Assembly (NCBI GenBank): GCA_964633425.1
Contig: CAZWFX010000001.1
Span: 74,687 to 138,686 of the forward strand
Source of the DNA: an uncultured Candidatus Saccharibacteria bacterium
GTDB lineage: Bacteria > Patescibacteriota > Minisyncoccia > Phycocordibacterales > UBA2100
Reading direction: 5' to 3'
Length of the DNA: 64,000 nucleotides
Shown: positions 1 through 24,331 of the stretch, piece by piece
Numbering within the stretch: the first letter of the stretch is position 1
Layout: every line of letters begins with the position of its first letter
Made by a program: the position numbers and the translations under genes
The notes under the pieces: generated by a model
What the model saw: only the letters and a program-made list of their open reading frames with translations
Database searches by the model: none
What the model was told of the DNA's origin: nothing

Positions 1-310
1 CCACGACAACGCCTTCCAGTTGACTGTGAGCCAGTAGGCTACTTGCTGCCGAAACCTTGTTGTTTGGCTGATCGTGATTGCCCTTAATGAGGATTAAGTT
101 TGCGTACTTACGAAGCCTTCTTAGGGCCTGATCCCAAAATAACATGACCTCCGAGTCGATGATTGAGTGGTTGTGATAAAGATCCCCTAAGATACAAATG
201 TAATCTACCCTACACTTCTTGGCGGTCGTCTCAATCCCGTCAATCAACCCCCAACAGTCCTTGAACTCAGACGTGACAACATGCGGGTCGCCAACAAACA
301 AAACCTTCAT
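1..310 (-). CDS. Calcineurin-like metallophosphoesterase (Mre11/SbcD-like nuclease), N-terminal part; gene continues beyond the window start
   Basis: Reverse-strand translation from the ATG at ~308-310 gives MKVLFVGDPHVV...ILGDLYHNH...IKGNHDQ, i.e. phosphoesterase motifs I-III (GDxH, GDxxH, GNHD). The ATG overlaps the stop of the upstream GroES-like ORF (ATGA overlap). Not in the ORF table because it is truncated by the window edge. Confidence 0.6.
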   Translation of the reverse strand, partial: MKVLFVGDPHVVTSEFKDCWGLIDGIETTAKKCRVDYICILGDLYHNHSIIDSEVMLFWDQALRRLRKYANLILIKGNHDQPNNKVSAASSLLAHSQLEGVVV

Positions 311-585
311 TCCTTAGTACCATGAGCTACTACTTGGGAATAGTCAATCAAAATAAATTCAACACCATCAATCTCTGCCTTACTTCCAATAGCAGCAGTC
401 GCCGAGGCCCCCTGTACATAAACCACGTCCCCAGTCCGATATCGACCAGAATCTAACATCACCCTCAACGAGATTAACTCCCGATGATTCTCCATCCTTA
501 AAAGACCCTTCTCGTTTCTCGTCTTTAAAGAAAGAGTCTCAGGAACGGAAACAGCAACCTTGTTGTTTGTAATTTCAATCTTCAT
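307..585 (-). CDS. GroES-like co-chaperonin (Cpn10-like), tentative
   Basis: 92 aa, the length of GroES. N-terminus MKIEITNNKVAV resembles MNIRPLHDRVIV. RTGDVVYV resembles KVGDIVIF. The C-terminal AEIDGVEFILIDYSQVVA resembles EKIDNEEVLIMSESDILA. Canonical AAGGGA SD upstream. Confidence 0.45.
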   Translation of the reverse strand: MKIEITNNKVAVSVPETLSLKTRNEKGLLRMENHRELISLRVMLDSGRYRTGDVVYVQGASATAAIGSKAEIDGVEFILIDYSQVVAHGTKE

Positions 586-1688
586 ACGTAAATTCCCTTT
601 AGTTTCAATAACTTACGCTTAAATGGCGAAAGTTGTTTAATGGCTTGGTGCAGTTTAGCGTGGCTTTCCGTGTATTCGGTGATGTTGTCTGGTTGCCAGG
701 AGGGGTCAGCGGCCAGTCCTTCTCCGATGGTGATCATTTTGTCTTTGGACTGACTGCTAGAGTCTTTGGACTCCACGGTATTTTCGGTAGACACGCAGTC
801 AGAAGCCAGCATAAGTTGTGAGGCTTCTTGAACTGAGGTCTTGTCTTCTTTTCTGTCTACGATCTTGTTGACCATTTCGACAAGGCTGTTAATATCTCCG
901 TCCGAGAACTTCTTAAATTTATGTAAGTTATAAAGCTTGCGTTTATCTGGTGGCCAGAAGTGCAATACAGTCTCTGAACCGCGCTCTATGAAATTGCCAG
1001 TCATCCTATTGATGGCGATATTGGCCAATCCGCCAAACGGCTGATCGCTGGGAGGTACGTACTTATCGATGGCCGAAAGGAGCCCTTCTGCGGCGATCTG
1101 GGTTAGATCTAGGTAGCTAAGATGTCCTCGTCCCCTTTGAGTCTTGGAGAAGAAAATCCTAGCTCTAGAGACAGCCAGGGGCATGTTTGTAATGCAGATT
1201 TCATTTCGGATTGCGCAGATGGCCTGATAAAGGGTCTTTATCCTAGAAGTCCACTTCCGTTGTGAGTAGATGAAATGGATTAGCCTGAAATTGGCCCTAA
1301 AAGCCATTAGGCTTCTGGCGTCCTTGGCCTTTAGTGCTGGGGAGATACTGGACTTAAACTTAAGCTGACGTTCTCTAAAGTACGGTCTGGCGTGAAGTAT
1401 ATTGCCCTTTTCTTCTGTAATGTAGCTTACAAATTTCTGATAAGCCCACGGACCCTTTGAGTGTCGCCTTATGGCATCCTGAAACTCAAATTCCAGATCT
1501 AACAGTAATTGAACCTGGAGCCTCTGAGCCTCAAGCGCATCGTCTTTCTTGGCTGCAACATAATCGGTAAATTTTGAAATCTCGTTCTGAATAGACTTAC
1601 AAAATGTCCTGATGTGCTCAGCGGTGTGTTTGTCGTGGACTTGTCCCATTTTGACTCTGGTCTCTTTAAGAAGAAGCGTCCCCGTCAA
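582..1688 (-). CDS. Sigma-70 family RNA polymerase sigma factor-like protein
   Basis: YLDLTQIAAEGLLSAIDKYVPPSDQPFGGLANIAINRM matches the sigma region 2.1-2.3 pattern (DLxQEGxxGLxxAxxKFdP...FstYAxxxIrxxI). The C-terminal LSPFKRKLLKLKGI resembles the region 4 HTH. The start is uncertain: a TTG overlaps the helicase stop, and an internal ATG (MGQVH) is possible. Confidence 0.5.
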   Translation of the reverse strand: MTGTLLLKETRVKMGQVHDKHTAEHIRTFCKSIQNEISKFTDYVAAKKDDALEAQRLQVQLLLDLEFEFQDAIRRHSKGPWAYQKFVSYITEEKGNILHARPYFRERQLKFKSSISPALKAKDARSLMAFRANFRLIHFIYSQRKWTSRIKTLYQAICAIRNEICITNMPLAVSRARIFFSKTQRGRGHLSYLDLTQIAAEGLLSAIDKYVPPSDQPFGGLANIAINRMTGNFIERGSETVLHFWPPDKRKLYNLHKFKKFSDGDINSLVEMVNKIVDRKEDKTSVQEASQLMLASDCVSTENTVESKDSSSQSKDKMITIGEGLAADPSWQPDNITEYTESHAKLHQAIKQLSPFKRKLLKLKGIYV

Positions 1689-3240
1689 TTATGCGAACAG
1701 GGCCATACAGGTATTCGTAGATCGCCTTGCGCTCATCAGAATGCCTGGCTAGCGTTGGGTGGTTGATCTTGAAATCAATCCAAGTAGCTTCAATCTTTTG
1801 GTTTCCGGTAAATGGGTTATACACCAGACTTTTAGGACCTCCTCTTGTAATCCGACCGACCGACTGCGATACCTCGATTTCAGACATCCCACCCACCAGA
1901 TAAACACCCACCTCCGCCACGCGAATGTCCGTACCGGTAGATACGCAAGAAGTTCCTACTAATACCTGTAGCTTACCATCATTAAAGTCAGCCACCACGT
2001 CATTGGGTTCACATTCACGGAATTTCTCCGGTACCGTGTCACGATTGTCCTTGTTCAAAGGCCCATGAGCAAACCCAACTTTGAGATTGGATATGTGCTT
2101 ATATATCTTGGAAAATTGCTCAATTTCATCAATCCTAATTAAGATAGGTTTTTGAATAGAAGCGAAATGCTGAACAATTTCAGCTACTTTGCTTGCGACC
2201 TTTTCTGAATAGAACAACAGGCGTCGAGTTACCTCATTGGCATCTCCTGAGTTACAGATTTCATCTGGTTCTAGTTCAATGAAGGAAAACTTGGGTTTTG
2301 AAAGGAACCCGTCATCCACCAGGGATTTCAGGGTTTTTGAGTAGACTGCGGTACCGGCGAGTCCTTCCAGCAATAGGTCCTTGCCGTCGTTTCTGAGGAG
2401 TGTGGCGGTTACGAAGAATCTATACGGAGCATTACAGGCCAGTCCTGCGGCGACCTTCTCTTGTGTGGCGGCGGCGATCATATGGGCTTCGTCTACGATA
2501 AAGACCTGGCATTTAGATAGGGCGTCCCATTCTTTAGAATTTGGTTCTACTCTAACCAGCGAGTCGTCTATTCCTATTGTAATTAGCTTATTGACCGTCT
2601 TTTTACCACCACCAAAAAAACCAACGTATTTGTCTCCTAAATGATACTTAAATTCATCATACATCTGCTTTGCGATAGATGTTGATGGTACCATAATTAG
2701 CGTTTTTAGCGCCAATTCCTTAATCACATCAAGAATTATCCTACTCTTACCTCCACCAGTAGCGAGTTCGATAGATGCTGGGCCATATGGAGCAGAGTCT
2801 ATTAAGATCCTGGCTGCTTCTTGCTGATATGGTCTACTGGGGTTCTTGGGAACATTCTTCCACGGAATAAGATCGGGTTCTGGTAATGAGTAAGATCGCC
2901 TGGGAGATCCCGTGTTTAGGATGTCAGCAACCCTTTTTGCAAGTCCGGAATAAACCCAATATCCCTTGCTGTCGTTCTTTAATAGGCATTGATACTCATC
3001 CTTTTCAATAGATAAGATCCTCTGTTTTACCCAATCCAGCTTTCGAAAATACGCCCATTTCCCCATCTTCTGTACCAAAAAGTCCTGATCTCTTAAAAGA
3101 GACTGGAGTTGCTTTCTGGTTCTGTTCAACAGAAAAGACACCTGCTTGTCTTTGTATGTTAACTCAGAAGTCAGGAGCTTAAGAGTTCCTGTGTCGATTG
3201 TGTGGATCCTGAGCTTTAACGGTGTTTCTAGTTCTAACAC
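1666..3240 (-). CDS. SF2 DEAD/DEAH-box DNA helicase (UvsW/type III res-like)
   Basis: Walker A LATGGGKS, Walker B/DEAH box FIVDEAH, helicase C-domain motifs (VLVGTSCVSTGTDI, QSVGRITR). GTG start at 3240, preceded by GGCTATAG on the minus strand. Confidence 0.8.
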   Translation of the reverse strand: MLELETPLKLRIHTIDTGTLKLLTSELTYKDKQVSFLLNRTRKQLQSLLRDQDFLVQKMGKWAYFRKLDWVKQRILSIEKDEYQCLLKNDSKGYWVYSGLAKRVADILNTGSPRRSYSLPEPDLIPWKNVPKNPSRPYQQEAARILIDSAPYGPASIELATGGGKSRIILDVIKELALKTLIMVPSTSIAKQMYDEFKYHLGDKYVGFFGGGKKTVNKLITIGIDDSLVRVEPNSKEWDALSKCQVFIVDEAHMIAAATQEKVAAGLACNAPYRFFVTATLLRNDGKDLLLEGLAGTAVYSKTLKSLVDDGFLSKPKFSFIELEPDEICNSGDANEVTRRLLFYSEKVASKVAEIVQHFASIQKPILIRIDEIEQFSKIYKHISNLKVGFAHGPLNKDNRDTVPEKFRECEPNDVVADFNDGKLQVLVGTSCVSTGTDIRVAEVGVYLVGGMSEIEVSQSVGRITRGGPKSLVYNPFTGNQKIEATWIDFKINHPTLARHSDERKAIYEYLYGPVRIIDGDASS

Positions 3241-3516
3241 GTACAGTCTATAGCCAAATCGATAGACACACGTATCGCCAGGAGAGCCACCGTTCGCCGG
3301 TACCTTTCCTGGAAACCCAGATCTTGGGTTCCGGAAAAATCGCTTCGAAGTTTTCTTGTATCTTGGATGACTAGAAAGTAGAATGCCTGTTCGTGAGGCT
3401 TCCTTGGCAATCCCAATCCATGTGTGTTTTTGGGTTTTTGGGTTTTGGGAGACTCGGATTGGTCTCGATAAGGTTTCTTATATCTAAACCCTATCAAATC
3501 ATCAACTAACGTTTCT

Positions 3517-3529
3517 TATTATATCACAT
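3517..3529 (-). promoter_or_regulatory. Extended -10 promoter (TGaTATAAT) reading leftward toward the helicase operon
   Basis: The minus strand reads TGTGATATAATAA. The TATAAT hexamer is perfect, and the TG sits one base upstream (TGnTATAAT). It lies in the 400-nt divergent region between the helicase and DUF1376 genes. Confidence 0.4.
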
Positions 3530-3595
3530 TTTCGGAAAAGATTCTGTAGTGCCGCTTACACTTTGGTGCGATTTGTCAATTTGTGTCTTTTGCCA

Positions 3596-3624
3596 TTGAC
3601 TACCAGAAACCAAACCACTAGGCT
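3596..3624 (+). promoter_or_regulatory. Sigma70-like promoter TTGACT-17-TAGGCT for the rightward replication operon
   Basis: TTGACT at ~3596, a 17-nt spacer, then TAGGCT. The ATG at 3637 is only ~5-6 nt past the predicted transcription start (near-leaderless). Confidence 0.35.
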
Positions 3625-3636
3625 CTTCCATGTAAA

Positions 3637-4458
3637 ATGACCGCTCAGCTCAAAACCGTGCCCTTCTACCTACAGGCCTGGACTCAAGACGAGTTCGTAA
3701 AAACTCTTACGGCAAGAGAGACTGGTATCTATTGGAAATTACTGGTGTTTCAGGCAGAAAACGGGTCTATCCCAGTAGATTTGGCGTCTATGTCGGCGGA
3801 TCTTGGGGTGCCGATCGTGGAGCTGAAGGAGGACTGGCCGAAGCTAAGTGGGAAGTTTCAGCTTGGGGAGGATGGGCGGCTGAGGAACCGAAAGATGCAG
3901 ATGGCGATAGAGTATGCCGAATTCCAGTACCGAAAGAAGGCGGCGCAGGATGCCGCTGAGGCTTTTCGGCAGGCGAGGAAGGGCTATTACGTAACGGATC
4001 AGGCCATGGAGAGGATTTTAAGTACGTTTCCAAGGCGAAACGGAAACCCCAAGGATGGTCACACTCGGGCGATGTCTATGATACGAGCAGCGATTCATTC
4101 TGATGAAGATTTGGAAAGGATGATTGCGGCGATAACGGCATACAAGACGTACTTAACTCATACATACAAGGCCAAGTCCGATCTGCTTCAGTTTACCAAG
4201 AGAATTGACAAGTGGATGGAGTCCTGGCAGGACTGGGTCCCTGAAAAACCGGTGGTCAGGGAGGAGGCGATTGTTCAAATCCCTGACTTTAAGACTGTAG
4301 ATGAGGAGTTGGCGTGGAAGAGGCAGCAGGGTATGTTACCCAAGTACCCTCCTGGGTCCAGGTTTCCCTGGGAGCCAAGGTACGGGGCAACCCCTCTTGA
4401 GCTGAAGGCCATCAGGGAGAAATGGACTGACTCTAAAAAGAAAGAAGCCGTACAATAA
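3637..4458 (+). CDS. DUF1376 (YdaU-like) phage replication-associated protein
   Basis: The N-terminal pattern FYLQAWTQDEFVKTLTARETGIYWKLL...ENGSIP is typical of the DUF1376 family found in phage replication modules. It is the first gene of the plus-strand block, and its stop overlaps the dnaB start (TAATG). Confidence 0.4.
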   Translation: MTAQLKTVPFYLQAWTQDEFVKTLTARETGIYWKLLVFQAENGSIPVDLASMSADLGVPIVELKEDWPKLSGKFQLGEDGRLRNRKMQMAIEYAEFQYRKKAAQDAAEAFRQARKGYYVTDQAMERILSTFPRRNGNPKDGHTRAMSMIRAAIHSDEDLERMIAAITAYKTYLTHTYKAKSDLLQFTKRIDKWMESWQDWVPEKPVVREEAIVQIPDFKTVDEELAWKRQQGMLPKYPPGSRFPWEPRYGATPLELKAIREKWTDSKKKEAVQ

Positions 4459-6974
4459 TGTCTGATGATAATCAGTCGGAAAATAGTAAAGTACAAATAG
4501 AGACATCAATTGCCTTTGATGAAGGCAAGCAACTAGCATTCCTCGGATGGCTTTTTAGAGACCCCGGCTTGTTCGCTCAGGCGGCCAGGATCGTAAAGCC
4601 CGATTGGTTTACTGACATTTTTGCCAGGAAAGCCTACAAGGCAATGCTGGAGATCGGAAAGGCCTTTCATCGACACCCAGAGCCAGCAGAAATCCACCAG
4701 TGGAGAGGTCTTAACGGAGAAGACAGTCGAACTCGCGGCAAGATCGAACAGATCGTGTCGAGGGGGATTGAGTCTAGTATGGGGTACGGTCTGGACCTCA
4801 TTCGGTCGGACATGCAGTCGTGGCTGATGGCCACATTGTTTGTTGAGACCATCCAGAAGTCTGTTCCGGTATTTAACTCAAAGGATGTCTCCAGGGCAGT
4901 AGAACTAATGGAGAAGGGGATCTTGAAGATCAAAGCCTCTTCTTTTGCAGACGGGATTCACCAAGGATTTTCAGAGTCCCCATCCAACATGAGTCTTGAA
5001 AGGGCAGATCGGCTTCGTCACAGGGAGCGAATCCTAGAGTACGGAGTGACCTTCTTAGATGACGCCTTGTGTGGGATTCGGCCCACTGAGCTGATTATTC
5101 TAGGGGCCAAGGCCGGATGTCATGCTCTTGGACAAAAAATTAGAATGTTTGATGGATCTGTTAAGGAAGTTCAAGATATTGTATCCGGAGACCTTCTAAT
5201 GGGCACGGACGGAAATCGTCGGGTTGTTACGGGATTAATTACTGGTAAGGGTGTGATGTACAGGGTCTCTCCTGTAAAAGGAGAGCCGTTTGTAGTAAAT
5301 GGAGATCATGTTCTTAAGGTTGCTTGGACAGAATTCGATCAAACGCATTACGTTACGGTTGAACAATTCCTGGCTTGGCCAGTTACGTATCAAAAAAGGT
5401 CCAAGCTAATCCGATCTGGTGGCGTGGACTACAAGGAAGTAAATCTACCAGTCGACCCGTACTTTTTAGGAGTCTTGCTTGGAGACGGCTGCCTGGCTTC
5501 TCATCCGGTTGGAATTACAACGAAAGACCCTGAAATTCTTAGAGAAATTGAAAATCAAGCAGAATTGCTAGACTTACGAATTTCTAAGTTTGATAATAAC
5601 GGGAAAAGATGTCCAACGTATCACCTGCCGAAAAAAAATAGCGCAAAGGGCAGACAGTCATCTCTTGGAAGAGATTTGGAGTATCTTGGATTATTAGGAA
5701 AAAGATCTAACGATAAATTCATCCCAGATATCTATAAAAAATCTGGAAAGAAACAAAGACTGAGTCTACTCGCCGGATTGATTGACACGGACGGATCGCT
5801 TGGATGCTCGGTTTATGACTACATTTCTAAGTCCAAGCAACTATCGTTTGATGTTTGCGAGTTGGCTAGAAGCGTTGGCTTGGCGGCATACGTAAGGTCT
5901 TGTATTAAGACGGACCAGAACGGTGTTTCTGGCGAATACTGGAGGGTTTCTATTTCAGGTAATACTGAAATGGTTCCATGTCGTATTGAAAGAAAGAAAG
6001 CAAATAAGAGAATACAGAAAAAATCCGTATTAAGAACAGGGTTTACGATCCAGGCTATTGGAGAAGAATCTTTTTATGGGTTTGAACTTTCTGATGATGG
6101 AGAATATCTTCTAGAAGATTTCACGGAGACACACAATAGCGGCAAAACCCAGTTAAGTCTGTCTATTGCATTACATAATGCACAAAAAGGAAAGCGCGTA
6201 CATTTTTTCGCACTAGAAGCAGATCAGTACGAAATAGAGCGAAGAATTAAATACTCTATTCTAGCTAACTACTACTACAGCTCAGGAAACCACAAACACA
6301 TCGACTACGGTGCCTGGCTGAATGGGGAACTTGAAGACGAGTTGGGTGAGCTTGAAACCGCCCTTCAGGGCCAGTTTGAAGACGCTGTAAAAAACCTTAA
6401 CCTTCTCTATCGTAGAGACGGTATGTTCGACCTTGATGCCCTCAAGGAAGAACTCCTTAGTCTTGTCGGGAAAACCGACCTGATCATCCTTGATCACCTC
6501 CACTACATCGACACCGACGGGGATGAAGAAAATCGGGTATACGCGGAAGCCATTAAAACTATTAGGGATATTGTCTTAAGGTATGAGATTCCGGTTATTG
6601 TTGTTTGTCACCTTAGGAAGGACTCCACGTTTAAGGGAACTCCTACGATTGTTCCCAAGCTTGAGGACTTTCATGGAACCAGCAATATTGGCAAGATTGC
6701 CACGACGGCGATTATGCTTGGTAGGGCGTTTGACCGGGAGCCTAGCGTCCCTGGGTATTTCTTACAGCCAACCTACATGAGGATTACCAAGTCCCGAATG
6801 GATGGCGGGCGAACGTACTTTGTGGCTCTGACTGAATTCAACACCAGAACCAACTGTTACGAGCCGGTATACAAGCTTGGACGTCCAAGTAATCACGACA
6901 CGGAATGGACTGAGCTGGAAAACCTCTTGCCTTTCCAGAAGAGGCTTGCTAGTATTTTGAACATCACGCTTTAG
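4458..6974 (+). CDS. dnaB: Replicative DNA helicase DnaB-like, interrupted by an in-frame intein
   Basis: DnaB N-terminal domain. The Walker A is split: ILGAKAG | C...intein...HN | SGKTQLS, reconstituting GAKAGSGKT. The C-terminal half has the DnaB motifs LIILDHLHYID and IPVIVVCHLRK. Confidence 0.85.
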   Translation: MSDDNQSENSKVQIETSIAFDEGKQLAFLGWLFRDPGLFAQAARIVKPDWFTDIFARKAYKAMLEIGKAFHRHPEPAEIHQWRGLNGEDSRTRGKIEQIVSRGIESSMGYGLDLIRSDMQSWLMATLFVETIQKSVPVFNSKDVSRAVELMEKGILKIKASSFADGIHQGFSESPSNMSLERADRLRHRERILEYGVTFLDDALCGIRPTELIILGAKAGCHALGQKIRMFDGSVKEVQDIVSGDLLMGTDGNRRVVTGLITGKGVMYRVSPVKGEPFVVNGDHVLKVAWTEFDQTHYVTVEQFLAWPVTYQKRSKLIRSGGVDYKEVNLPVDPYFLGVLLGDGCLASHPVGITTKDPEILREIENQAELLDLRISKFDNNGKRCPTYHLPKKNSAKGRQSSLGRDLEYLGLLGKRSNDKFIPDIYKKSGKKQRLSLLAGLIDTDGSLGCSVYDYISKSKQLSFDVCELARSVGLAAYVRSCIKTDQNGVSGEYWRVSISGNTEMVPCRIERKKANKRIQKKSVLRTGFTIQAIGEESFYGFELSDDGEYLLEDFTETHNSGKTQLSLSIALHNAQKGKRVHFFALEADQYEIERRIKYSILANYYYSSGNHKHIDYGAWLNGELEDELGELETALQGQFEDAVKNLNLLYRRDGMFDLDALKEELLSLVGKTDLIILDHLHYIDTDGDEENRVYAEAIKTIRDIVLRYEIPVIVVCHLRKDSTFKGTPTIVPKLEDFHGTSNIGKIATTAIMLGRAFDREPSVPGYFLQPTYMRITKSRMDGGRTYFVALTEFNTRTNCYEPVYKLGRPSNHDTEWTELENLLPFQKRLASILNITL
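5118..6137 (+). mobile_element. Intein (340 aa) with a LAGLIDADG homing-endonuclease domain in the DnaB P-loop
   Basis: Starts with Cys (CHALGQKIRMFDGS). LAGLIDADG blocks LGVLLGDGCL and LAGLIDTDGSL. Ends ...FTETHN, followed by the +1 Ser of the extein SGKT. Confidence 0.8.
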
Positions 6975-6998
6975 AGCTACAGACGACAAAGGAGACCA

Positions 6999-7472
6999 AT
7001 GTACAAAGAGATCATGCAGGCGACGCAGAGACAAACCAAGGTGACCAAGGACGAGTGCCGGAAGGTACTGGCCGAGTTTGCTGAAAACATGAAGGAATAC
7101 CTGACAGCCTCATGGCTTGAGGAGGATCGGGTAAGTTTTTTCAGGACAGGTGCGAGTATTCCTCGGGCAGGCGAGGACAAGGAGGACTACAGTGCCTTCA
7201 ACGACCTGATCGAGAACGGTGACTACGCGGCAGCCATGGCCAAGGCCATGAAGGGGGCTCAGGACAGGATTCTTTCTCTTGACTGGACCTTTGAACCCAT
7301 CGTGGTCTTCTGGAAGAGTCGTCCGTACGAGATCGAATTCAGCGCGGAGGCTCTTAAGGCGCACCTTAAGGAACTGGTATCAAACAGTGCCTTTATTTAC
7401 ATCGCGGTTAACGGGAAAGGTCCGGCGCCAACCCAGCCAGAAATCCAACAGGCCAGAGCCTCTTCAAACTAA
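6999..7472 (+). CDS. Hypothetical protein
   Basis: 157-aa ORF with a canonical AAGGAG SD 7 nt upstream. No recognisable motifs. Confidence 0.5.
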   Translation: MYKEIMQATQRQTKVTKDECRKVLAEFAENMKEYLTASWLEEDRVSFFRTGASIPRAGEDKEDYSAFNDLIENGDYAAAMAKAMKGAQDRILSLDWTFEPIVVFWKSRPYEIEFSAEALKAHLKELVSNSAFIYIAVNGKGPAPTQPEIQQARASSN

Positions 7473-7489
7473 GGCTATATTCATGGTGA

Positions 7490-9289
7490 TTGGAAAACCG
7501 TAAAGCAAAGACTGCAAGCAAGATTGTAGTCCCTAAGGGACCACTCCTAACCAAGAGGAAGCTCTCCGCAATGGAGAGAATCTCCAATATCGTTGGAGCC
7601 ACACTCGGACCTGGCGGAAGTCCGATTCTTATCGAAAGATACGAAAACGACATGCCGCCGCTAATTACAAAAGACGGGGTTACCGTTTTCAAATCTCTGG
7701 GATTTGAAGATCCTCTTGAGCAGGTGGTCTTGGATTCTGCCCGCGATGCCGCCATCAAAACGGCCAACATCGCCGGTGATGGGACAACGACAGCTACCAT
7801 TTTAGCTGAGTCTTTTGTTCGACAAATCCACGAATATTGTGAAAAGAACCCCACCTTTAGTCCGCAGGGACTGATCCGCGAACTTTACAGTGATTACGAA
7901 GAAGTCCTAGAGCCGATTTTGAAGGCCCTAGTGTTTAAGCCAGGGTCTTGTTCCTTTAGCGACTCCAAGGAATATCCGTACGACGTATATCACGGAGTGG
8001 CTGCCATTTCGGCCAACGGCGACAAGCCTCTTGCTGAGGCCGTTATGAAGTGTTACGGATTGGTCGGCGACTACGGCAACGTCTCGATCGTTGAGGCTTC
8101 TGGAAACGCAGCCTACGAGGTCGAAGCTATGGATGGCTATTTCCTGGGGTCTGGGTACCAGGATCTGGGCCAGTTCTACCCAGCCTTCATAAATGACGCA
8201 TCGCGTCAGGTGGCCAGGCTGGAGAGACCCCGGTTTGTTTTGTATTTTGGCAGGATCAACCACTTAAATTCTCTGTATCAGGCCATTTCAGATCTGGCAG
8301 AGGACTTTGACTGTAAAAATCAGACCGGTGAAAGTAAGTACGAGAACCATGACGTGGTTGTGGTCTGTACTGGCTTTAGCGAACAGGTACTTGGGACCTT
8401 GGCCGCCGGGTTCCAGACCAGCTCGGTCCTGAACGTTTACCCGTTGGTGATTCCAAAGATGCCGATGCAAAACGGGCAACTTCAGTTTCTACAAGACCTG
8501 TCTGCTATCACAGGTGCCAAGGTCTTCAATCCGCTGGACGCCCCTCTGGAGACCTGTACGACCCAAGATCTTGGTCCAGGAGTCGAGGCCTTTGAGGCAC
8601 ATGGATTCAAATCTAGCGTGATTGGCTTTGCTGACGGCTGCGAAGAGGCCGTCCTCAAGCAGGCTGATGCCATCCGGACTCAACTAATTAACCCCGAGTC
8701 TCAATTGGAACAGATCTGGCTTCAAGAACGTCTGGCTAAAATCACCAATGGTATCGCCAAGTTGATTGTAAGAGGATCGTCTACTGTCGAGGTTCGAGAG
8801 CGGAAGGATCGGGCCGAGGATGCTGTTTGTGCTGTCAAAGGAGCCATTCATCACGGGGTATTGCCTGGAGGCGCCTGGGCCATGGAGGCTCTGTCGTATT
8901 CGGCGCATCAGTGTAAAAGCGAGGCTTCCCGGAGTATCTTCAAGAAGGTCTTTTCGGAACCTCTGACTCGGTTGTTAAACAACGCGGGGTTGGTGGATCC
9001 GGCGCGTGTTGAAGCCATTCGATCTGAGATTCACAGAGGATTTACGTTTAATTCAAAGGCTCCTCTGGTTTATGACGCACTGAGTCATAAGATAGTTAAC
9101 CCTCATGACGTGTATCTGTACGACTCAGCTCAGGCAGTCTTTGAGTCCATTAAAAATAGCTTCTCTATCGCCAGCGTGGTCGGGACTCTTGGAGGCGTCG
9201 TGGCCTTCAAAAGAGACGACGAGCTGGAGCGCCAGGCCGCCAGAGAATATGCGCAAGACTACAAAGAAATGAATGAATATAAGGAATAA
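7490..9289 (+). CDS. groEL: GroEL-like chaperonin (Cpn60/HSP60 family)
   Basis: TLGPGGSPILIE...PLITKDGVTVFKSLGFEDP...AGDGTTTATILAESF matches GroEL TLGPKGRNVVL...PTITKDGVSVAREIELEDK...AGDGTTTATVLAQ. The length also fits. TTG start at 7490, preceded by GGCTATAT. An internal ATG (MERIS) is an alternative start. Confidence 0.85.
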   Translation: MENRKAKTASKIVVPKGPLLTKRKLSAMERISNIVGATLGPGGSPILIERYENDMPPLITKDGVTVFKSLGFEDPLEQVVLDSARDAAIKTANIAGDGTTTATILAESFVRQIHEYCEKNPTFSPQGLIRELYSDYEEVLEPILKALVFKPGSCSFSDSKEYPYDVYHGVAAISANGDKPLAEAVMKCYGLVGDYGNVSIVEASGNAAYEVEAMDGYFLGSGYQDLGQFYPAFINDASRQVARLERPRFVLYFGRINHLNSLYQAISDLAEDFDCKNQTGESKYENHDVVVVCTGFSEQVLGTLAAGFQTSSVLNVYPLVIPKMPMQNGQLQFLQDLSAITGAKVFNPLDAPLETCTTQDLGPGVEAFEAHGFKSSVIGFADGCEEAVLKQADAIRTQLINPESQLEQIWLQERLAKITNGIAKLIVRGSSTVEVRERKDRAEDAVCAVKGAIHHGVLPGGAWAMEALSYSAHQCKSEASRSIFKKVFSEPLTRLLNNAGLVDPARVEAIRSEIHRGFTFNSKAPLVYDALSHKIVNPHDVYLYDSAQAVFESIKNSFSIASVVGTLGGVVAFKRDDELERQAAREYAQDYKEMNEYKE

Positions 9290-9294
9290 AAATA

Positions 9295-9888
9295 ATGCTA
9301 TACGTACTAGTGAGTATCTCTCTGATATTGTTTGGGCTTTCTTTGTATCTGATCTATGCGGTCTATCGAGAAGCAACAAAAGAAAATAGCGAAGAGGCCG
9401 TAGCTACCGTCGCTCCGCAGCCACCTCATCCAGAAGATCGAAGCTGGGAGCCAACGGGGAAGCTTTTCAACTGTTCGACATACGCCAACATTGACATATC
9501 AAGTCCGGAAGTTGCGGATCTTAAGGCTCAGGTGGATAGATACGTCAAGACGCAGGAGTTCTTGGATCTACATCCACAGCTTGGCATTGACTTTTCTCCG
9601 ATGCCTCCTAGCCAGGAAAGGATTGATGGCATGAAGGTCGAATTTATAAATTCTTCTAAGTCAGAAAAGCCTGTCGCAGAAGAGGCGAAAAAGGAGGTCT
9701 CAAAGGTAGAAGAGCTGTTTGATAAAGTCAAAGACACGGATCTTCAGACCTCAATTTTGGCCGCTCCGACTCCTAATGGTGGACTAACATACAAGCCAAA
9801 GAAGGCCAGAGCTAAAAAGTCGAAAGACGACAAGCCAGCCAAGGCCAAGAAGACGGCAAAGAAGCCAGCCAAGGCCAAGAAGACGTAA
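9295..9888 (+). CDS. Membrane-anchored protein with a histone H1-like Lys/Ala/Pro-rich C-terminal tail
   Basis: N-terminal TM helix (LYVLVSISLILFGLSLYLIYAV). The C-terminus KKARAKKSKDDKPAKAKKTAKKPAKAKKT is encoded by a perfect direct DNA repeat. Confidence 0.5.
   Translation: MLYVLVSISLILFGLSLYLIYAVYREATKENSEEAVATVAPQPPHPEDRSWEPTGKLFNCSTYANIDISSPEVADLKAQVDRYVKTQEFLDLHPQLGIDFSPMPPSQERIDGMKVEFINSSKSEKPVAEEAKKEVSKVEELFDKVKDTDLQTSILAAPTPNGGLTYKPKKARAKKSKDDKPAKAKKTAKKPAKAKKT
9826..9888 (+). repeat. Tandem direct repeat encoding KPAKAKKT x2
   Basis: aagccagccaaggccaagaagacg occurs twice, 30 nt apart, at the 3' end of the ORF. Confidence 0.6.
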
Positions 9889-10146: not shown

Positions 10147-12066
10147 GTGGGAACCAAGCTCAAGCGTCTTCGAATATCCAACTTTAGATCTTTTCTGGGA
10201 GATCATGAATTAGATTTTCCAGAATCTGGGCTCATTCTGTTAAAGGGCGAGTCTGGCGTTGGCAAGTCCAGCGTATTTCACGCCATCGCTTACTGTCTTG
10301 GCTTTAGTCCCATCCCAGCGAAAGACCTGCAGAATTGGTCCGAGCAGTCGGGACCTATGTCTGTCACCATGCTCCTAGAGCACAATGGACAACCCGTTGA
10401 AATAACTAGGACTTCTAAAAATTCATACATTAAAATTGGTGGGCAGATGGTCTCAACTTCCAACAAGGATTTTGAGAAAAATCTCGACAAGCATCTCGGG
10501 ACCACCTCGGGTTTTCGTGAGATCTTAACTTATCGAGATCAGATGGCGCCCGTTCGATTTACCAAGCTTTCTGATTCTGAGAAGAAAGCTTTATTGAGTG
10601 ATCTTTTGGGGCTGGTGAAGATAGAGCAGGCTTTAATCGAGGCGAGCCAGGAGGCCAACAGGCTCTTGGCTGAGAAGGAGAAGGTTGGCGCTGTTCTGTC
10701 TGGCATGGAGCAGGTTCTGGGACCTGAGCCGGCGCCACCACCACTTGACAGAATGGAGGCCATAAATCTAGAACTCAAGGAGCTAGATCGACTCGAAGAG
10801 AACGAGCGGGCTGAGTACGACATTCGGACCAAGACCAACACTTCCCAGTACAACAAAGACCTGGAGGATCTCAAGTACCTACTTACGATGGTACCGCAAG
10901 TACAAGATCCAAGGGATCCTGTCGTGGAGCAGAGCTACAGGGCCCTGATTGAACAAGAGGCGCAGAGGCTAAAGGCTTGGGACGAGATCCTGGCTAAGCA
11001 TAGGGCGAAAACCAAAGGACTGGAGCTTCAATTCAAGGCCTGGGAGGCTGCTGAGCGAGAGATTTGTTCAGTCGAGAAGTCGATCAGAGACCTACATGTA
11101 GATAGATGTCCTACATGTAGTCAAGAGTGGGATTCTACACAACATCGAGCATTACTAGAGACAAAACTGCAAAATTTGCGTTTGAGTCAACCGCCCAATC
11201 CAAGCGACGAACTAAAGGCCTGTGAATACGAAAGGATCGCCATCGAGGCCACGAAGCCCTCAATGGCCGAAGAGATCGCTGAAGCCAGACTCCTAGTAAA
11301 AGAACAAGAATCTCGGTTCTTGGAAAAGCAACAGAATCGAAATTCAAAGATAGATTCTATTAAAGCTCAAATCGCCACCCTTACAGCTAATTGGAAATCC
11401 AACCAAAAGCCTTTCCAGTTTTCTCGTATAAATGAAGTGGCTGCATTACGGCAGGAACAGGATCGGCTCTCCAAAGACATTTCTCTACGAGACGCTGCCA
11501 AGAAGTCCTGGGAACTTAGCCTTGCAAAAATAAAGGCCCAAAGACAGATTTTGGACGATGTCCAGCAGAAACTAGCAGTTGAGCAGGACTGGCAGGCATT
11601 GCTCAGGGGTTTTTTGGGGAGGATTGTTGAAGAGGTACTCTGGGAGATCTCGTCTAAGGCCAACGACATCCTTAAAAACCTACCCAACACCTCTTCCGTT
11701 ACCGTTGAGTTTCAGGTCCAGAAGGCTTCAGGGAAGGAAGCCATCACTCCAATATTCCGCTTTGGCGGCCAGGAGGCTTCCCTGAAGTCTGGGGCCTCTG
11801 GAGGTATGGCCACGGCCATTGAGCTGGCCATCGATCTGGCCCTGGCTGAGACCGTGGCATCCCGAAAGGGGATCTCGATGGGGTGGCTGCTGCTAGACGA
11901 GGCCTTCAACGGGTTTTCTCAGGGGGTCCGTGAAGAGGTCTTGACGGTGCTTGGCTCCTATGCTAGAGATCGTCTTGTGGTCGCTATTGACCACGCTGGC
12001 GAAATGCAGGCCATGTTTAGTACATCGATCGAAATTAAAAACGGGGGTTTTCATTGGTCAGAGTAA
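10147..12066 (+). CDS. SbcC/Rad50-like recombination ATPase (T4 gp46-like)
   Basis: N-terminal RISNFRSF...LLKGESGVGKSS (Walker A). A long coiled coil with a central CPTC zinc hook. C-terminal signature and Walker B (ASGGMATAIELAIDLA...LLLDEAF). GTG start preceded by GGCTATAT. Confidence 0.8.
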   Translation: MGTKLKRLRISNFRSFLGDHELDFPESGLILLKGESGVGKSSVFHAIAYCLGFSPIPAKDLQNWSEQSGPMSVTMLLEHNGQPVEITRTSKNSYIKIGGQMVSTSNKDFEKNLDKHLGTTSGFREILTYRDQMAPVRFTKLSDSEKKALLSDLLGLVKIEQALIEASQEANRLLAEKEKVGAVLSGMEQVLGPEPAPPPLDRMEAINLELKELDRLEENERAEYDIRTKTNTSQYNKDLEDLKYLLTMVPQVQDPRDPVVEQSYRALIEQEAQRLKAWDEILAKHRAKTKGLELQFKAWEAAEREICSVEKSIRDLHVDRCPTCSQEWDSTQHRALLETKLQNLRLSQPPNPSDELKACEYERIAIEATKPSMAEEIAEARLLVKEQESRFLEKQQNRNSKIDSIKAQIATLTANWKSNQKPFQFSRINEVAALRQEQDRLSKDISLRDAAKKSWELSLAKIKAQRQILDDVQQKLAVEQDWQALLRGFLGRIVEEVLWEISSKANDILKNLPNTSSVTVEFQVQKASGKEAITPIFRFGGQEASLKSGASGGMATAIELAIDLALAETVASRKGISMGWLLLDEAFNGFSQGVREEVLTVLGSYARDRLVVAIDHAGEMQAMFSTSIEIKNGGFHWSE

Positions 12067-20044: not shown

Positions 20045-21739
20045 ATGATTAACCCACCAACATGCCACTGCCACCCTCTTAGTCTTGACACTGGAAGTCA
20101 AATCAACGACTTTATCAAGAAAGAACAAGAGCTGGGAACCGGTTACGTTACCGCCACAGACCATGGATCCATGGGATCTGCGTATCTAATTTACACAAAG
20201 GCCAAGAAGGCCTCCCTAACACCGATTCTTGGTATCGAAGTCTACCTCAGAGACCCCGACTGCGACGTCTTAAAAGAACTGACACCAAGCCCGGAAGACT
20301 ACCTTAAATTTGGCAATCCCAAGTCTAAGTACATGCACGCCACTCTCCACTACATGGACGTGGAGGCCTACGAGGCAGGCTGCTCGGTTCTTTCAAAAGC
20401 CCCAAGAGAAAAGCACGGATCTGAAGACAAGCCCATCTACACCTGGGACGATATTGCTACCCTTGGGGCCAAAAATGTCACTGGAGGATCCGGCTGCCTT
20501 ATTGGTGTGGTGCAGCGACATCTCATGGTCGGAAGACCCGACGTCGCTGAAAAATACTATGTAAAATACAAGAACATGTTCAAAAAGGACAACTTCTTTG
20601 TTGAGGTTTTCCCTCATAAATGTACCCATAACTGGGTATCTGGTGTTTTCGTTACAGTAAAAGACAGTAACGGTGAAACCAAACAGCTTAGGTTTTACGA
20701 AGAGAAAAAGCTTAAGACCAATCACTCAGAAGAGGTCACGGCCTCTAGCCTGGCTCGATCTCCAGCCAAACACACCCACTTATTGGGGATTAAGAACTAC
20801 AGGACCTGGGACGAGGTCTCTTACAAGATCGTCTCCGTAAGGCACGTAGAAGAGTTTGTTCAAAATGAGTGTACTGTAGATGCCCCAGACGGAGATCTGC
20901 AAGCCAGAGCCAACAAATTCGTTTTGCAGATGGCCGAGAAGTACGGAGACCCAGTGATCAGCTCCGATGACAGCCACTACGTAAGCCCGGAAGACAAAAT
21001 TGTTCAGGACGTGGCTCTGGCTCAGTCGGGTAAGTGGAGGTTTTTCGGTAGTTATCATAGGCAGAGCGCGGCCGAGCAGTTTGCCTGTTACAAAGAGACT
21101 TTGGGGCTTGGTGAAAGGGAGTTCGAAAAATGGACGAACAACGCTCTAGAATGGGCTTCTAAATTCAAAAACTTTGAGTTTTCTTACAAACCATCACTAG
21201 CCAATAAATTCTATCCGTCCGACACCCTTGGATACCTAAAATCCTTGATGGAAAAGCACGGAAGAATAAATAACGCACCAGAATACACCCAGCGCCTAGA
21301 GACCGAAATTCAAATGCTTCACAACAACGGCAAAATCGATTTGTTGCCGTACTTCTTTCCCGCCGAAGAGGTCTGTGAAGAGTACGCTATCAACGGAGAG
21401 CTTGCGGGGCTTGGCCGAGGCAGTGCCGCAGGGTTGCTGGTGTCGTACTACCTGGGTATTACCCACATAGATCCAATAAAGGACGGCCTGTCAATGGAAA
21501 GGTTCATTTCCATTGACCGTATTTTGGGAGGCAAGCTTCCAGATATCGACCAGGACCTTTCGTCAACAGATTACCTTGTTGGTACCGCAATAGATCGCGT
21601 TACGGTAGAAATGGAGGACGGTACCGTTAGGGAATATTTGTCTGAGGAACTCATTCAGACCGAAGAGGGCCCCATGACCATCTTCGAAGCGGCAACTAAA
21701 AAGCTGGATATCTTGGATTTGGATGAGAGTGATGAATAA
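20045..21739 (+). CDS. dnaE: DNA polymerase III alpha (DnaE) N-terminal segment: PHP domain plus palm, with an acidic C-terminal extension
   Basis: PHP His cluster (HCHPLSLDTGS...ATDHGSM...GIEVY...SDDSHY). The palm motif LAGLGRGSAAGLLVSYYLGITHIDP...ERFIS...LPDIDQD matches [23 protein letters not shown]...ERFLNPER.SMPDIDIDF. Confidence 0.8.
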   Translation: MINPPTCHCHPLSLDTGSQINDFIKKEQELGTGYVTATDHGSMGSAYLIYTKAKKASLTPILGIEVYLRDPDCDVLKELTPSPEDYLKFGNPKSKYMHATLHYMDVEAYEAGCSVLSKAPREKHGSEDKPIYTWDDIATLGAKNVTGGSGCLIGVVQRHLMVGRPDVAEKYYVKYKNMFKKDNFFVEVFPHKCTHNWVSGVFVTVKDSNGETKQLRFYEEKKLKTNHSEEVTASSLARSPAKHTHLLGIKNYRTWDEVSYKIVSVRHVEEFVQNECTVDAPDGDLQARANKFVLQMAEKYGDPVISSDDSHYVSPEDKIVQDVALAQSGKWRFFGSYHRQSAAEQFACYKETLGLGEREFEKWTNNALEWASKFKNFEFSYKPSLANKFYPSDTLGYLKSLMEKHGRINNAPEYTQRLETEIQMLHNNGKIDLLPYFFPAEEVCEEYAINGELAGLGRGSAAGLLVSYYLGITHIDPIKDGLSMERFISIDRILGGKLPDIDQDLSSTDYLVGTAIDRVTVEMEDGTVREYLSEELIQTEEGPMTIFEAATKKLDILDLDESDE

Positions 21740-22051: not shown

Positions 22052-24331
22052 ATGAAGATAAAGGAAATCCTCTCGGTTAAAACAGAACGGAAGCCCGGAT
22101 GGCTAGATCGCCGCTTCGGAGAGCACTTTGCTCGAATTTCAACCGTTACTACCAGGAAGCTGAAATATGCCATCAGGGACGTCGCCCGCTTTACTTACGG
22201 CAAGGGCATGATCCCGTATGACATCGAGCGACTGGCCAAGGCCATTCAGACTCCACCACAGGGCGTGAACGACTACGACTTCGTATTCGGCTATGAAGAG
22301 GCAGGACGTTTCGTTGAGGGTACGATAAATACTGACCCAGCTCTAAAGGAGTATGTCAAAAAATACCCTAACCAATGGAAGATTGTAGTCAAATGCCTTA
22401 GCTTGGTTAGAAACAGCTCGCTACACGCCTGTGGTTATGTAATCGCCTCCAGGCCAATCCGGGAGTTTATGCCGCTCTCTTCCATAAAGGGAACTGAGTG
22501 TACAGAATTCACGGCTAATTCATCAGACGGGATATCTTCCGTTGAGGGCGTAGGCGGCATCAAATACGACTACCTTAAACTAAACTCTCTAAAAGATGTT
22601 CAGATTGCAGTTAAACTAATACAAAAACGATCTGGACTTCAAATACCTGATTTTATTACAAAAAATGGGCGATGTCCAAAGGTCAGGATCCTACCATACA
22701 AAGGCCAATTAGAAGACATCTGGACGTCGTTACCTGAAGAGCCTGAAGTTTTTTCGGACATTTCCAATGGGGATACGGAGTCTGTTTTTCAGCTTTCTAC
22801 TCAAGGAGCCTTGAAGTGGCTGAAACTTTTTAATCAGGTAGGAAGGGACGAAAAGCCACTAATCTCGTCTGTAAGAGATATCGCTATTTTTACAGCCCTA
22901 GATCGACCAGGGCCGCTCGATATCGAGCTTACCAATCCAGAAGACGGGTCTAAGCACAACGCCTTGGTTGAGTACGTGAGAAGGGCCAGAGGACTGCCTC
23001 CATCAGAGGATATTTTGGAGGTCTTTGACAAACTTTTTCCTGAGACCAAAGGGATTCTTGTTTTCCAAGAACAGCTCCAGAGAGCATACCAGACACTCAC
23101 AGGCTGTTCTGGGGCTGAGGCCGATGAGTTCCGCTCAAACGTCGCCAAGAAGAGGGCGACCAAGGTGGCGGCCGCTTACGAGACGTTCGTTAAGCGGGCT
23201 GGGCAAATCCTTGGATCTGAAGAAAAGGCGGCTCAGGTATTTCAAGCTTTCGGAACCTGGTCAAACTATGGGTTCTGCCTAGCTCACGCCGTTAGCTACG
23301 CAAGACTTGCGTACGTTATTGCCTTTCTTAAGCGTCATTTTCCACTTGAATGGTGGACGGCCGTGTTGTCAAACGCCACCAAGGACGATATCTCCGATAA
23401 GTTCTGGCCAAAATGCTCAGAGATTATTGATTTGCCAGACATGTCAAATCCAAGAGATCGATTCGATATCGTAAATGAAAGAATTCAAGCCCCAATAGGA
23501 ATGCTTTGGGGTGTCGGCGGCAAGGCTCAAGAACAAATAGTCGCTTTTGCCCCATATTCTACAATCGATGAGTTTTGTGGTGGTATCCAAAAGTACAAGG
23601 AGCTAAATGCTATCACCACAACCGAAACAAAAGAAGTTAAGGGCGTGGTGAAGACTGTTTCTAAAAGGCGTCTTGGAAGATCGGCTGTCCATTCTGGTGT
23701 CGTGTACTCGCTCGTTGTCTCGGGAGCTATGGACAGCCTGTTTGAGCCAGGCCTTACCCTTGAAGAAAAGCTCCTGGCATACGAAAAAGCCATTGCCAAG
23801 GCCTCTGGAGCAAAAAAACACAAACCAGTCAAACCACAATTTAAGGATCTGAACGCCTACAACCAATTCCTAATGAGGAAGAAGCTCTTGCCAGTCTTTA
23901 CACAGAGCCTTCCAGATCTAATGGTAGACTGTAAACATCCATTAGTTTCAACTACTTATGGCAAACCCAGGTACAAGATAGCCGATCGGTTTGTGGACTT
24001 ATGGGGACTTAAGGAGCTTCGGCAGTTTGAAGAACACGGAAGTTCCATTCCGTCCGGAGGCTACCGAGCCGCCATTCCAGGATACGTCTCTAGCGTTAGG
24101 CGTTTTACGTTTGATGGCAACAAGGAAGCTTGTGCGATTGCTTTGAATATTGAGGGCGTCAATCAAGAATTTGTTAAGTGGCCGGATTGGAACTCTAAAA
24201 AGCTAGATCCGCGATACGACGCGGATCTGGAAAAGAGTCTGCTAGTTTTACATGTCGTAAAGCGACGTGAAGATCGGCCGTTCGTCGTTGAAAACTTTGA
24301 GGTTTTGGCCTCTAATCAAGCAAAACCGTAG
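22052..24331 (+). CDS. dnaE: DNA polymerase III alpha (DnaE) C-terminal segment: fingers and downstream domains
   Basis: [24 protein letters not shown] matches DnaE [46 protein letters not shown] matches R.TGxHAAGVVIS..PL...VPL. Confidence 0.8.
   Translation: [759 protein letters not shown]

Follow-up and report, generated by a model that had tools for sequence, protein, structure and literature searches.

A predicted Cpn10-fold protein as candidate co-chaperonin of the GroEL homolog encoded by an Mx1-like phage

Two genes of a putative phage chaperonin system

A stretch of 64,000 nt from contig CAZWFX010000001.1 (positions 74,687–138,686 of the forward strand; GenBank assembly GCA_964633425.1, deposited as an uncultured Candidatus Saccharibacteria bacterium), hereafter referred to as the window, was analyzed for two genes that may together encode a two-part chaperonin system. 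The window originates from a tailed phage of roughly 156 kb that is similar to Myxococcus phage Mx1. Both open reading frames (ORFs) exist as described in a first-pass annotation of this DNA, on the strands and with the motifs given there:

307–585, minus strand: 92-amino-acid (aa) Cpn10/GroES-fold protein, candidate co-chaperonin, ATG start (AlphaFold2, Foldseek and hhalign; no Pfam or PHROG match)
7490–9289, plus strand: group I chaperonin (GroEL/Cpn60 homolog), 599 aa, TTG start (Pfam, PHROG, PDB and clade alignment)

The motif AGDGTTTATILAESF corresponds to residues 95–109 of the 599-aa product, and the motifs MKIEITNNKVAV, GDVVYV and EIDGVEFILIDYSQVVA are found in the 92-aa product. The small gene and groEL belong to divergent operons on opposite strands, as had been noted in that annotation, and their starts are 6.9 kb apart.

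The 599-aa GroEL homolog

The only possible start of groEL is the TTG at 7490, with an in-frame TGA directly ahead of it (7487–7489). Residues 4–17 are conserved in Mx1 and in one metagenomic relative, so the N-terminus is correct. The protein matches Pfam family PF00118 (Cpn60_TCP1) with an E-value of 1.2e-30 and a score of 107.1 bits (cut-off, 34.3), as well as phrog_5725, "chaperonin groEL" (E-value, 7.7e-73; residues 27–577). Among PDB sequences, bacterial and mitochondrial Cpn60 proteins are matched at about 1e-45 to 1e-32, with the bacterial GroELs at about 1e-45, whereas gp146 of phage EL (6tmt) is matched at only 7e-17 and the group II chaperonins at 1e-8 or worse. The alignment to E. 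coli GroEL runs from end to end with 27% identity. Thus, the identification as a GroEL homolog made in the first-pass annotation agrees with Pfam, PHROG, PDB and the clade alignment described below.

Relatives of the window GroEL were found in 162 contigs of IMG/VR. Eighty of these were retrieved as GroEL-anchored loci (L016–L095), in which the homologs are 38–48% identical to the window protein and mostly come from genomes of 120–177 kb; the clade alignment, of the window protein and these loci, has 77 unique members. Numbered by the alignment to E. coli GroEL, the window protein has the T30-L31-G32-P33 phosphate loop, K51, D52, D87-G88-T89-T90-T91, D398, G414-G415 and D495. The positions T30, G32, P33, K51, D52, D87–T91, S151, D398, G415 and D495 are kept in 76–77 of the 77 clade members, and the ATP site of the large ORF is therefore intact; G414 (74/77) and L31 (60/77) are less strictly kept. 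The clade also has variants of its own, namely Gly in place of the phosphate-loop K34 (73/77), Ala in place of G416 and Asp in place of N479 (72/77). Relative to GroEL, both the intermediate and the apical domain carry small insertions, and the GGM tail or repeats are replaced by a conserved C-terminal "RD.ELER.EA" motif. In the apical groove formed by helices H and I, which in GroEL is the hydrophobic binding site for substrate and for the mobile loop of GroES, Y199, F204 and L259 are conserved across the 77 members and L237 stays hydrophobic; Y203 and V263 are replaced by Ala, and L234 and V264 are variable.

Taken together, the sequence data outright support the assignment of the 599-aa product to divergent group I (GroEL-type) chaperonins with an intact nucleotide site, and folding activity is predicted. 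Its nearest cultured relative, with 42% identity, is the GroEL of phage Mx1, which is already annotated as such, and this half of the finding, though real, is ordinary and already known. The rarity ascribed to phage-encoded Cpn60 in the first-pass annotation is true of cultured phages, as only 255 of 50,697 phage records contain some homolog, and is not true of viral metagenomes, which are rich in GroELs, often accompanied by GroES (PMC5649160).

Several irregular groEL genes were seen among the relatives. In L014, a related NCBI metagenome-assembled contig, the GroEL (2400–4793, minus strand) has 797 aa and a Hom_end/LAGLIDADG_3 signal, indicating that this chaperonin contains an intein. The GroEL matches of L082 and L083 are about 370 nt longer than usual. 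In the Joint Genome Institute contigs L011 (4239–6063) and L012 (4252–6068), GroEL is called in two or three pieces, while in the near-identical L013 it is intact (605 aa); the split calls are frameshifts, due either to sequencing errors or to recent pseudogenization.

Predicted fold and remote homology of the 92-aa protein

No Pfam or PHROG family, Cpn10 included, is matched by the 92-aa product. A word-indexed homolog search returned the protein itself and a single relative of 75% identity, while an exhaustive HMMER search recovered 23 true relatives and a subsequent profile search added more. After hidden Markov model (HMM) scans of the GroEL-anchored loci, the family comprises 94 unique sequences; with this family for the small ORF and the 162 IMG/VR relatives for the large one, both are real genes rather than chance reading frames. 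A lookup of encoding contigs had no entry for the exact window protein. The top HMMER match of the small protein, P0003, a repeat protein of 1356 aa, was rejected as a false positive caused by repeats of the IAVYEKVAVDVPEH type.

The first AlphaFold2 model, built from 2 sequences, was too poor for use, with a predicted local distance difference test score (pLDDT) of 55. With 25 homologs and no templates, the pLDDT rose to 84.7 and the predicted template modelling (TM) score to 0.73, and all five models reached a pLDDT of 80–85. The model consists of a beta-barrel core with a short helix (residues 59–68) and a long low-confidence loop (approximately residues 13–36) between strands 1 and 2, which is the topological site of the GroES mobile loop. 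In a Foldseek search of PDB with this model, ranks 1–34 were occupied exclusively by Cpn10/GroES structures (from H. thermophilus, T. thermophilus, M. tuberculosis, E. coli and phage T4, the latter being gp31, 1g31, and human Hsp10), with probabilities of 0.85–1.0 for ranks 1–32; noise with E > 1 followed after rank 34, and alcohol dehydrogenase-type domains appeared only at E of about 3. The top matches among the predicted viral structures of BFVD were annotated as co-chaperonin GroES (E-values from 8.5e-5; probability, 1.0).

A comparison based on sequence profiles gave a similar result. Using hhalign, the small family was aligned to seven GroES proteins taken from sequence records, one from E. 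coli and six annotated in phages; the probability is 88% and the E-value 3e-6, for an alignment that spans 40 C-terminal columns. The enlarged family gave 87%, the reversed profile 0.8%, and 30 column-shuffled profiles 1.5% or less. In its relaxed form the alignment is collinear over the full length, with G27-F28-A29 of the family placed on G24-I25-V26 of GroES. This support for homology to GroES is moderate, not overwhelming.

At the position of the roof beta-hairpin, the small family has an 11-column deletion. Hunt et al. reportedly described T4 gp31 in 1997 as being without a roof hairpin. Among viral GroES proteins, some likewise have this hairpin deleted, or deviate from the canonical residues in the loop (PMC5649160), and the missing hairpin is thus not disqualifying.

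The loop carries the most conserved motif of the family. It reads G27-L28-L29-R30-M31 in the window protein; across the family, G27 is present in 86% of the sequences, a hydrophobic residue occupies position 28 in 97% and position 31 in 90%, position 29 is Ala or hydrophobic in 71%, and Q/N and K/R follow position 31. Such conservation within a loop that is predicted to be disordered is what one would expect of a binding loop.

Based on these results, the 92-aa protein very probably has a Cpn10 fold, with a divergence that is comparable to that of T4 gp31. Since the Pfam test failed, it is considered a new family within the Cpn10/GroES fold and not a member of PF00166. The GroES-like character proposed in the first-pass annotation is therefore supported by AlphaFold2/Foldseek and by hhalign, and not by Pfam Cpn10.

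Gene organization around the two genes

The following neighboring genes were identified in the window:

1–310, minus strand: SbcD/Mre11-type metallophosphoesterase, N-terminal part, cut by the window edge (MKVLFVGDPH...GDLYH...GNHD)
582–1688, minus strand: 368-aa sigma-factor-like protein, whose gene immediately precedes the small gene (phrog_351, RNA polymerase sigma factor, 1.9e-07)
1666–3240, minus strand: DEAD/ResIII-type helicase, first gene of the leftward operon (Pfam ResIII, 1.2e-17, DEAD and Helicase_C; phrog_16, 2.2e-60)
6999–7472, plus strand: 157-aa ORF directly upstream of groEL, at the spot for a canonical groES (not GroES-like)
9295–9888, plus strand: 197-aa ORF between groEL and the Zn-ribbon gene (no family matches)
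10147–12066, plus strand: SbcC/Rad50-like ATPase downstream of GroEL (phrog_77, 5.8e-52; Pfam AAA_23 and SbcC_Walker_B)

The leftward operon runs from the helicase through the sigma-like gene and the small gene to the SbcD-like gene, and the small gene overlaps by ATGA at both ends, with the stop of the sigma-like gene and with the start of the SbcD-like gene. Synteny of the helicase extends to Mx1 and the metagenomic loci. The sigma-like gene has an ortholog in Mx1 that carries the annotation putative sigma factor, and in 54 of 64 loci it immediately precedes the small gene. Orthologs of the SbcD-like gene match phrog_100 (SbcD-like subunit) at about 1e-25 as well as SbcD in PDB. The rightward operon is composed of a DnaD/DUF1376-like gene, an intein-bearing dnaB, the 157-aa ORF, groEL, the 197-aa ORF, a Zn-ribbon ORF and the SbcC-like ATPase gene; in 45 of 72 related loci, the last of these genes comes after GroEL. 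Adjacent, co-transcribed groES and groEL genes, as in a groES-groEL operon, are thus not what is found here, since the small gene and groEL lie on opposite strands, 6.9 kb apart in the window and 2.5–6.9 kb apart in 58 relatives. The SbcD-like (1–310, minus strand) and SbcC-like (10147–12066, plus strand) subunits are also placed on opposite arms, each beside one of the proposed chaperonin partners, and this arrangement is conserved in most relatives. As SbcC and SbcD are obligate partners split over the same two arms, the opposite strands are no argument against a partnership of the small protein and GroEL.

The two small ORFs flanking groEL were considered as co-chaperonin candidates and rejected. 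The 157-aa ORF has no Cpn10 or PHROG match, only sub-threshold HU-like ones, and is absent at that position in Mx1. The 197-aa ORF gives no Cpn10 signal and has no counterpart at that position in Mx1; it has a hydrophobic N-terminal segment and a C-terminal tail very rich in lysine and alanine. A scan of the divergent intergenic region for sigma-70 promoters and terminators found nothing, and no near-identical DNA was found when the region was searched against phages.

Several genes of the window appear to be interrupted. The DnaB-like replicative helicase (4458–6974, plus strand; 838 aa) contains an intein with a LAGLIDADG homing endonuclease inside; Hom_end_hint, LAGLIDADG_3 and Hom_end are matched at residues 221–504, approximately, and DnaB_C resumes at 561. 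The 1391-aa ORF at 24363–28538 (plus strand) combines fragments of a terminase large subunit with a LAGLIDADG homing-endonuclease signal, and is probably intein-bearing, possibly with more than one insertion. The DNA polymerase gene (phrog_405; annotated as Pol III alpha in Mx1) is split into parts at 20045–21739 and 22052–24331 (plus strand), which correspond to the N- and C-terminal parts of the profile; the gap of about 300 nt could represent an intron, a mobile element or a truly split gene. The portal gene is located at 29543–31633, which puts the packaging genes on the GroEL arm, unlike in Mx1. Among the relatives, the sigma-like gene that precedes the small one encodes 762 aa in L004 (3308–5596), compared with 355 aa in its close relative L005 (2949–4016), which suggests a large insertion in L004, possibly an intein or a mobile element.

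ARAGORN found no tRNA genes within the window, whereas Mx1 carries 22 of them (PMC10720576). The G–C content across the window is 44–54%, below that of Mx1 (55.5%) and of Myxococcus (about 69%), and judging from these values a high-GC myxobacterium is unlikely to be the host.

Co-occurrence of the two genes and search for canonical GroES

Co-occurrence was assessed in those GroEL-anchored IMG/VR loci that extend at least 8 kb upstream (n = 63). The small family is present in 60 of them, and in the remaining three the helicase module lies beyond the fetched flank. In 58 loci the small gene is divergent from groEL at a distance of 2.5–6.9 kb (median, 4.0 kb). Seen from the side of the small protein, a Cpn60 gene lies 4–6 kb away in each of the long contigs (L011, L012/L013, L014). 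Among the 50,697 records of cultured phages, the small family occurs only in Mx1, which also has the closest GroEL.

A Cpn10 HMM built from sourced GroES sequences was run with filters off against ORFs of at least 40 aa, and no canonical GroES was found in the window, the complete Mx1 genome or any of the fetched loci, including the 80 GroEL-anchored ones. The sole weak matches outside the training set were three members of the small family (E = 0.05–0.17). Likewise, there is no GroES among the 272 annotated features of Mx1, and no Cpn10 in the precomputed Pfam annotation around four metagenomic loci.

Proposed chaperonin system and its alternatives

Based on the Cpn10-like predicted fold, the remote profile homology, the loop motif, the clade-wide co-occurrence and the absence of a canonical GroES, it is plausible that the phage encodes a two-part chaperonin system in which the small protein serves as co-chaperonin of the phage GroEL; this reading, in which the small protein would form a heptamer and bind that GroEL, is given a probability of roughly 60%. 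The system would be split between the two divergent operons. The 599-aa protein would be an ATP-hydrolyzing GroEL-type chaperonin, and the 92-aa protein would assemble into a ring-shaped lid, whose flexible loop (Gly27 and the hydrophobic positions 28, 29 and 31) may slot into the apical groove of the phage chaperonin. During the ATP cycle the lid would cap the folding chamber, allowing phage proteins to fold; the capsid protein and other large structural proteins are the most plausible substrates. We infer the oligomeric state of the lid, its binding to the phage rather than to the host GroEL, and the substrates. The "complete phage-borne chaperonin pair" envisaged in the first-pass annotation is hence plausible by fold, motif and co-occurrence.

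Several observations weigh against this proposal. Neither the window protein nor any of 25 family members is matched by Pfam Cpn10 (PF00166) at E ≤ 1, and searching PDB sequences with a profile of the small family yielded no significant match (Cpn20, E = 0.22). The Foldseek E-values are modest (best in PDB, 2.5e-3) and the TM-scores are about 0.5, in part due to the loop, and the confident part of the profile–profile alignment is limited to the C-terminal 40 columns. The loop motif, G-hydrophobic-Ala-x-hydrophobic, departs from the canonical three consecutive hydrophobic residues, and the apical groove of the clade GroEL is conserved only in part (V263 is replaced by Ala and L234 is variable). 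A covariation test by mutual information between loop and apical groove in 61 paired genomes was underpowered (p of about 0.07), with the top pairs formed by clade-splitting columns. In addition, all of the co-occurrence comes from one phage lineage, with synteny kept across the entire block, and is therefore not independent evidence of a functional pair.

The linkage of the small gene belongs to the same side of the balance, as it is never adjacent to groEL, and its tightest linkage is to the SbcD-like gene, which it overlaps by ATGA, which is adjacent downstream in 58 of 64 loci, and with which it moves together in the rearranged genomes L030 and L032. This linkage, including the translational coupling, is the main argument for an alternative in which the small protein is a Cpn10-like barrel recruited elsewhere, likeliest as an accessory of the SbcD/Mre11-type nuclease or in another replication or recombination role, with a GroES likeness at the level of the fold. 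The lack of a Pfam Cpn10 match and the DNA and transcription functions of the rest of the operon would fit such a role. Nevertheless, it is considered unlikely. The structural matches are specifically co-chaperonins, with alcohol dehydrogenase-type GroES-fold domains far below them, the collinear alignment to GroES takes in the loop motif, and the conserved hydrophobic motif lies in a disordered loop at the mobile-loop position. Moreover, inserted ORFs separate the small gene from SbcD in L014/L015, L036 and other loci, a Thg1-like gene (tRNA-His guanylyltransferase family; 306–1474) follows P0005 (121 aa) in L007 in the usual place of the SbcD-like gene, and SbcC, the obligate partner of SbcD, sits beside GroEL on the other arm. 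No SbcCD system is known to have a Cpn10-fold subunit, although no search aimed at one was made.

A further point against the proposed pair is that the chaperonins of cultured phages, such as EL gp146, appear to act without a co-chaperonin (PMC7185714). The 92-aa protein might be a gp31-type co-chaperonin that mainly serves the host GroEL, leaving the phage GroEL lidless, as reported for EL gp146; the presence of T4 gp31 among the structural matches and the position of the small gene outside the groEL operon are consistent with this. We regard it as rather improbable, since every sufficiently long genome with the small gene also has a GroEL of this clade, the clade GroEL retains the groove residues Y199, F204 and L259, and the window GroEL is far nearer to the co-chaperonin-dependent bacterial GroELs than to EL gp146; the hosts would supply a GroES of their own anyway. 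It is very improbable that the GroES-like fold is a modelling artefact, in which AlphaFold2 and Foldseek reach Cpn10 by chance from some other small beta protein, as the small alignment, the poor 2-sequence model, the TM-scores and the Foldseek E-values of 1e-3 to 1e-5 might suggest, given that all five template-free models are confident, that 34 of the 34 top PDB matches and nearly all named top BFVD matches belong to one family before a sharp drop to noise, and that the sequence-only profile–profile comparison agrees, with clean controls.

Comparison with known phage chaperonins

Three types of phages are known in this respect, namely those with GroES only (T4 gp31), those with GroES and GroEL in an operon, and those with GroEL only (PMC7185714; PMC5649160). 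Like T4 gp31 and CocO of RB49, which are phage co-chaperonins of GroES fold that hardly resemble GroES in sequence, the 92-aa protein is a small phage protein of predicted Cpn10 fold that is missed by ordinary sequence searches. It further resembles gp31 in its long putative mobile loop with a Gly-hydrophobic motif, in having no roof hairpin and in a gene located away from any groEL. In contrast, gp31 partners the host GroEL and T4 has no GroEL of its own, whereas the clade of the window phage always carries one; the two small proteins share no detectable sequence family and are related by fold only.

With the viral groES-groEL operons (PMC5649160; Flavobacterium phage vB_FspM_immuto; Cellulophaga phages), the window phage shares a group I chaperonin and a putative Cpn10-fold protein in a large double-stranded DNA genome. 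The GroES of these operons is recognizable by BLAST or CDD and is encoded beside groEL, whereas the candidate of the window clade is invisible to Pfam, lies 2.5–6.9 kb away in the divergent operon and is coupled to an SbcD-like gene. In the virioplankton study of Marine et al. (2017), 40% of the GroEL contigs had a recognizable adjacent GroES, and there was a "GroEL" clade without one (PMC5649160). By these standards the window clade would be scored as GroEL-only, yet according to the structural model it carries a cryptic, gp31-like Cpn10-fold protein elsewhere.

The closest counterpart is Mx1 (GroEL, WNM70305.1), in which the helicase, the sigma-like gene, the small gene and the SbcD-like gene are likewise found on one arm, and GroEL, the Zn-ribbon gene and SbcC on the other. 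Its small protein, WNM70310.1, is 31% identical to the window protein and 44% identical to the family consensus; it differs in having a C-terminal extension and a length of 154 aa. Its annotation is hypothetical protein, a designation that it retained although HHpred was used by the authors of the Mx1 genome (PMC10720576). Elsewhere the window phage differs from Mx1 in gene order, with the terminase and portal genes on the GroEL arm, and in its extra inteins.

The proteins EL gp146, OBP gp246 and AR9 gp228 are also Cpn60-family ATPases of large phages with no canonical GroES annotated in their genomes, and they are far more divergent from GroEL than the window protein. The EL chaperonin is 22% identical to GroEL and is reported not to use GroES (PMC7185714). 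Bracher et al. (2020) explicitly allowed that phage EL and phages of this kind might have a distant homolog of GroES (PMC7185714).

Significance

Phage chaperonin pairs as such are not new (PMC5649160; immuto); what is new here is a candidate lid that sequence annotation fails to reveal and whose gene is not linked to groEL. Phage chaperonins attract study as minimal or unusual folding machines, and the finding addresses an open question, namely whether phage chaperonins without a GroES neighbor really act lidless. A whole clade of large phages (162 IMG/VR contigs, as counted from GroEL, and Mx1, a tractable phage in culture) has what is, by prediction, a Cpn10-fold protein missed by standard annotation. 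More tentatively, Mx1-like phages and other "GroEL-only" lineages might use a sequence-cryptic, roof-less Cpn10-fold lid from another operon that has co-evolved with a remodelled apical groove; this broader reading is less likely than not. If true, the co-chaperonin independence of viral group I-like chaperonins would be largely an annotation artefact, and the coupling of the lid to SbcD and of GroEL to SbcC might reflect the coordinated expression of two split machines from a divergent promoter region. Co-chaperonin independence should not be deduced from gene neighborhood or Pfam alone, and phages that are thought to be GroEL-only may own a complete chaperonin pair.

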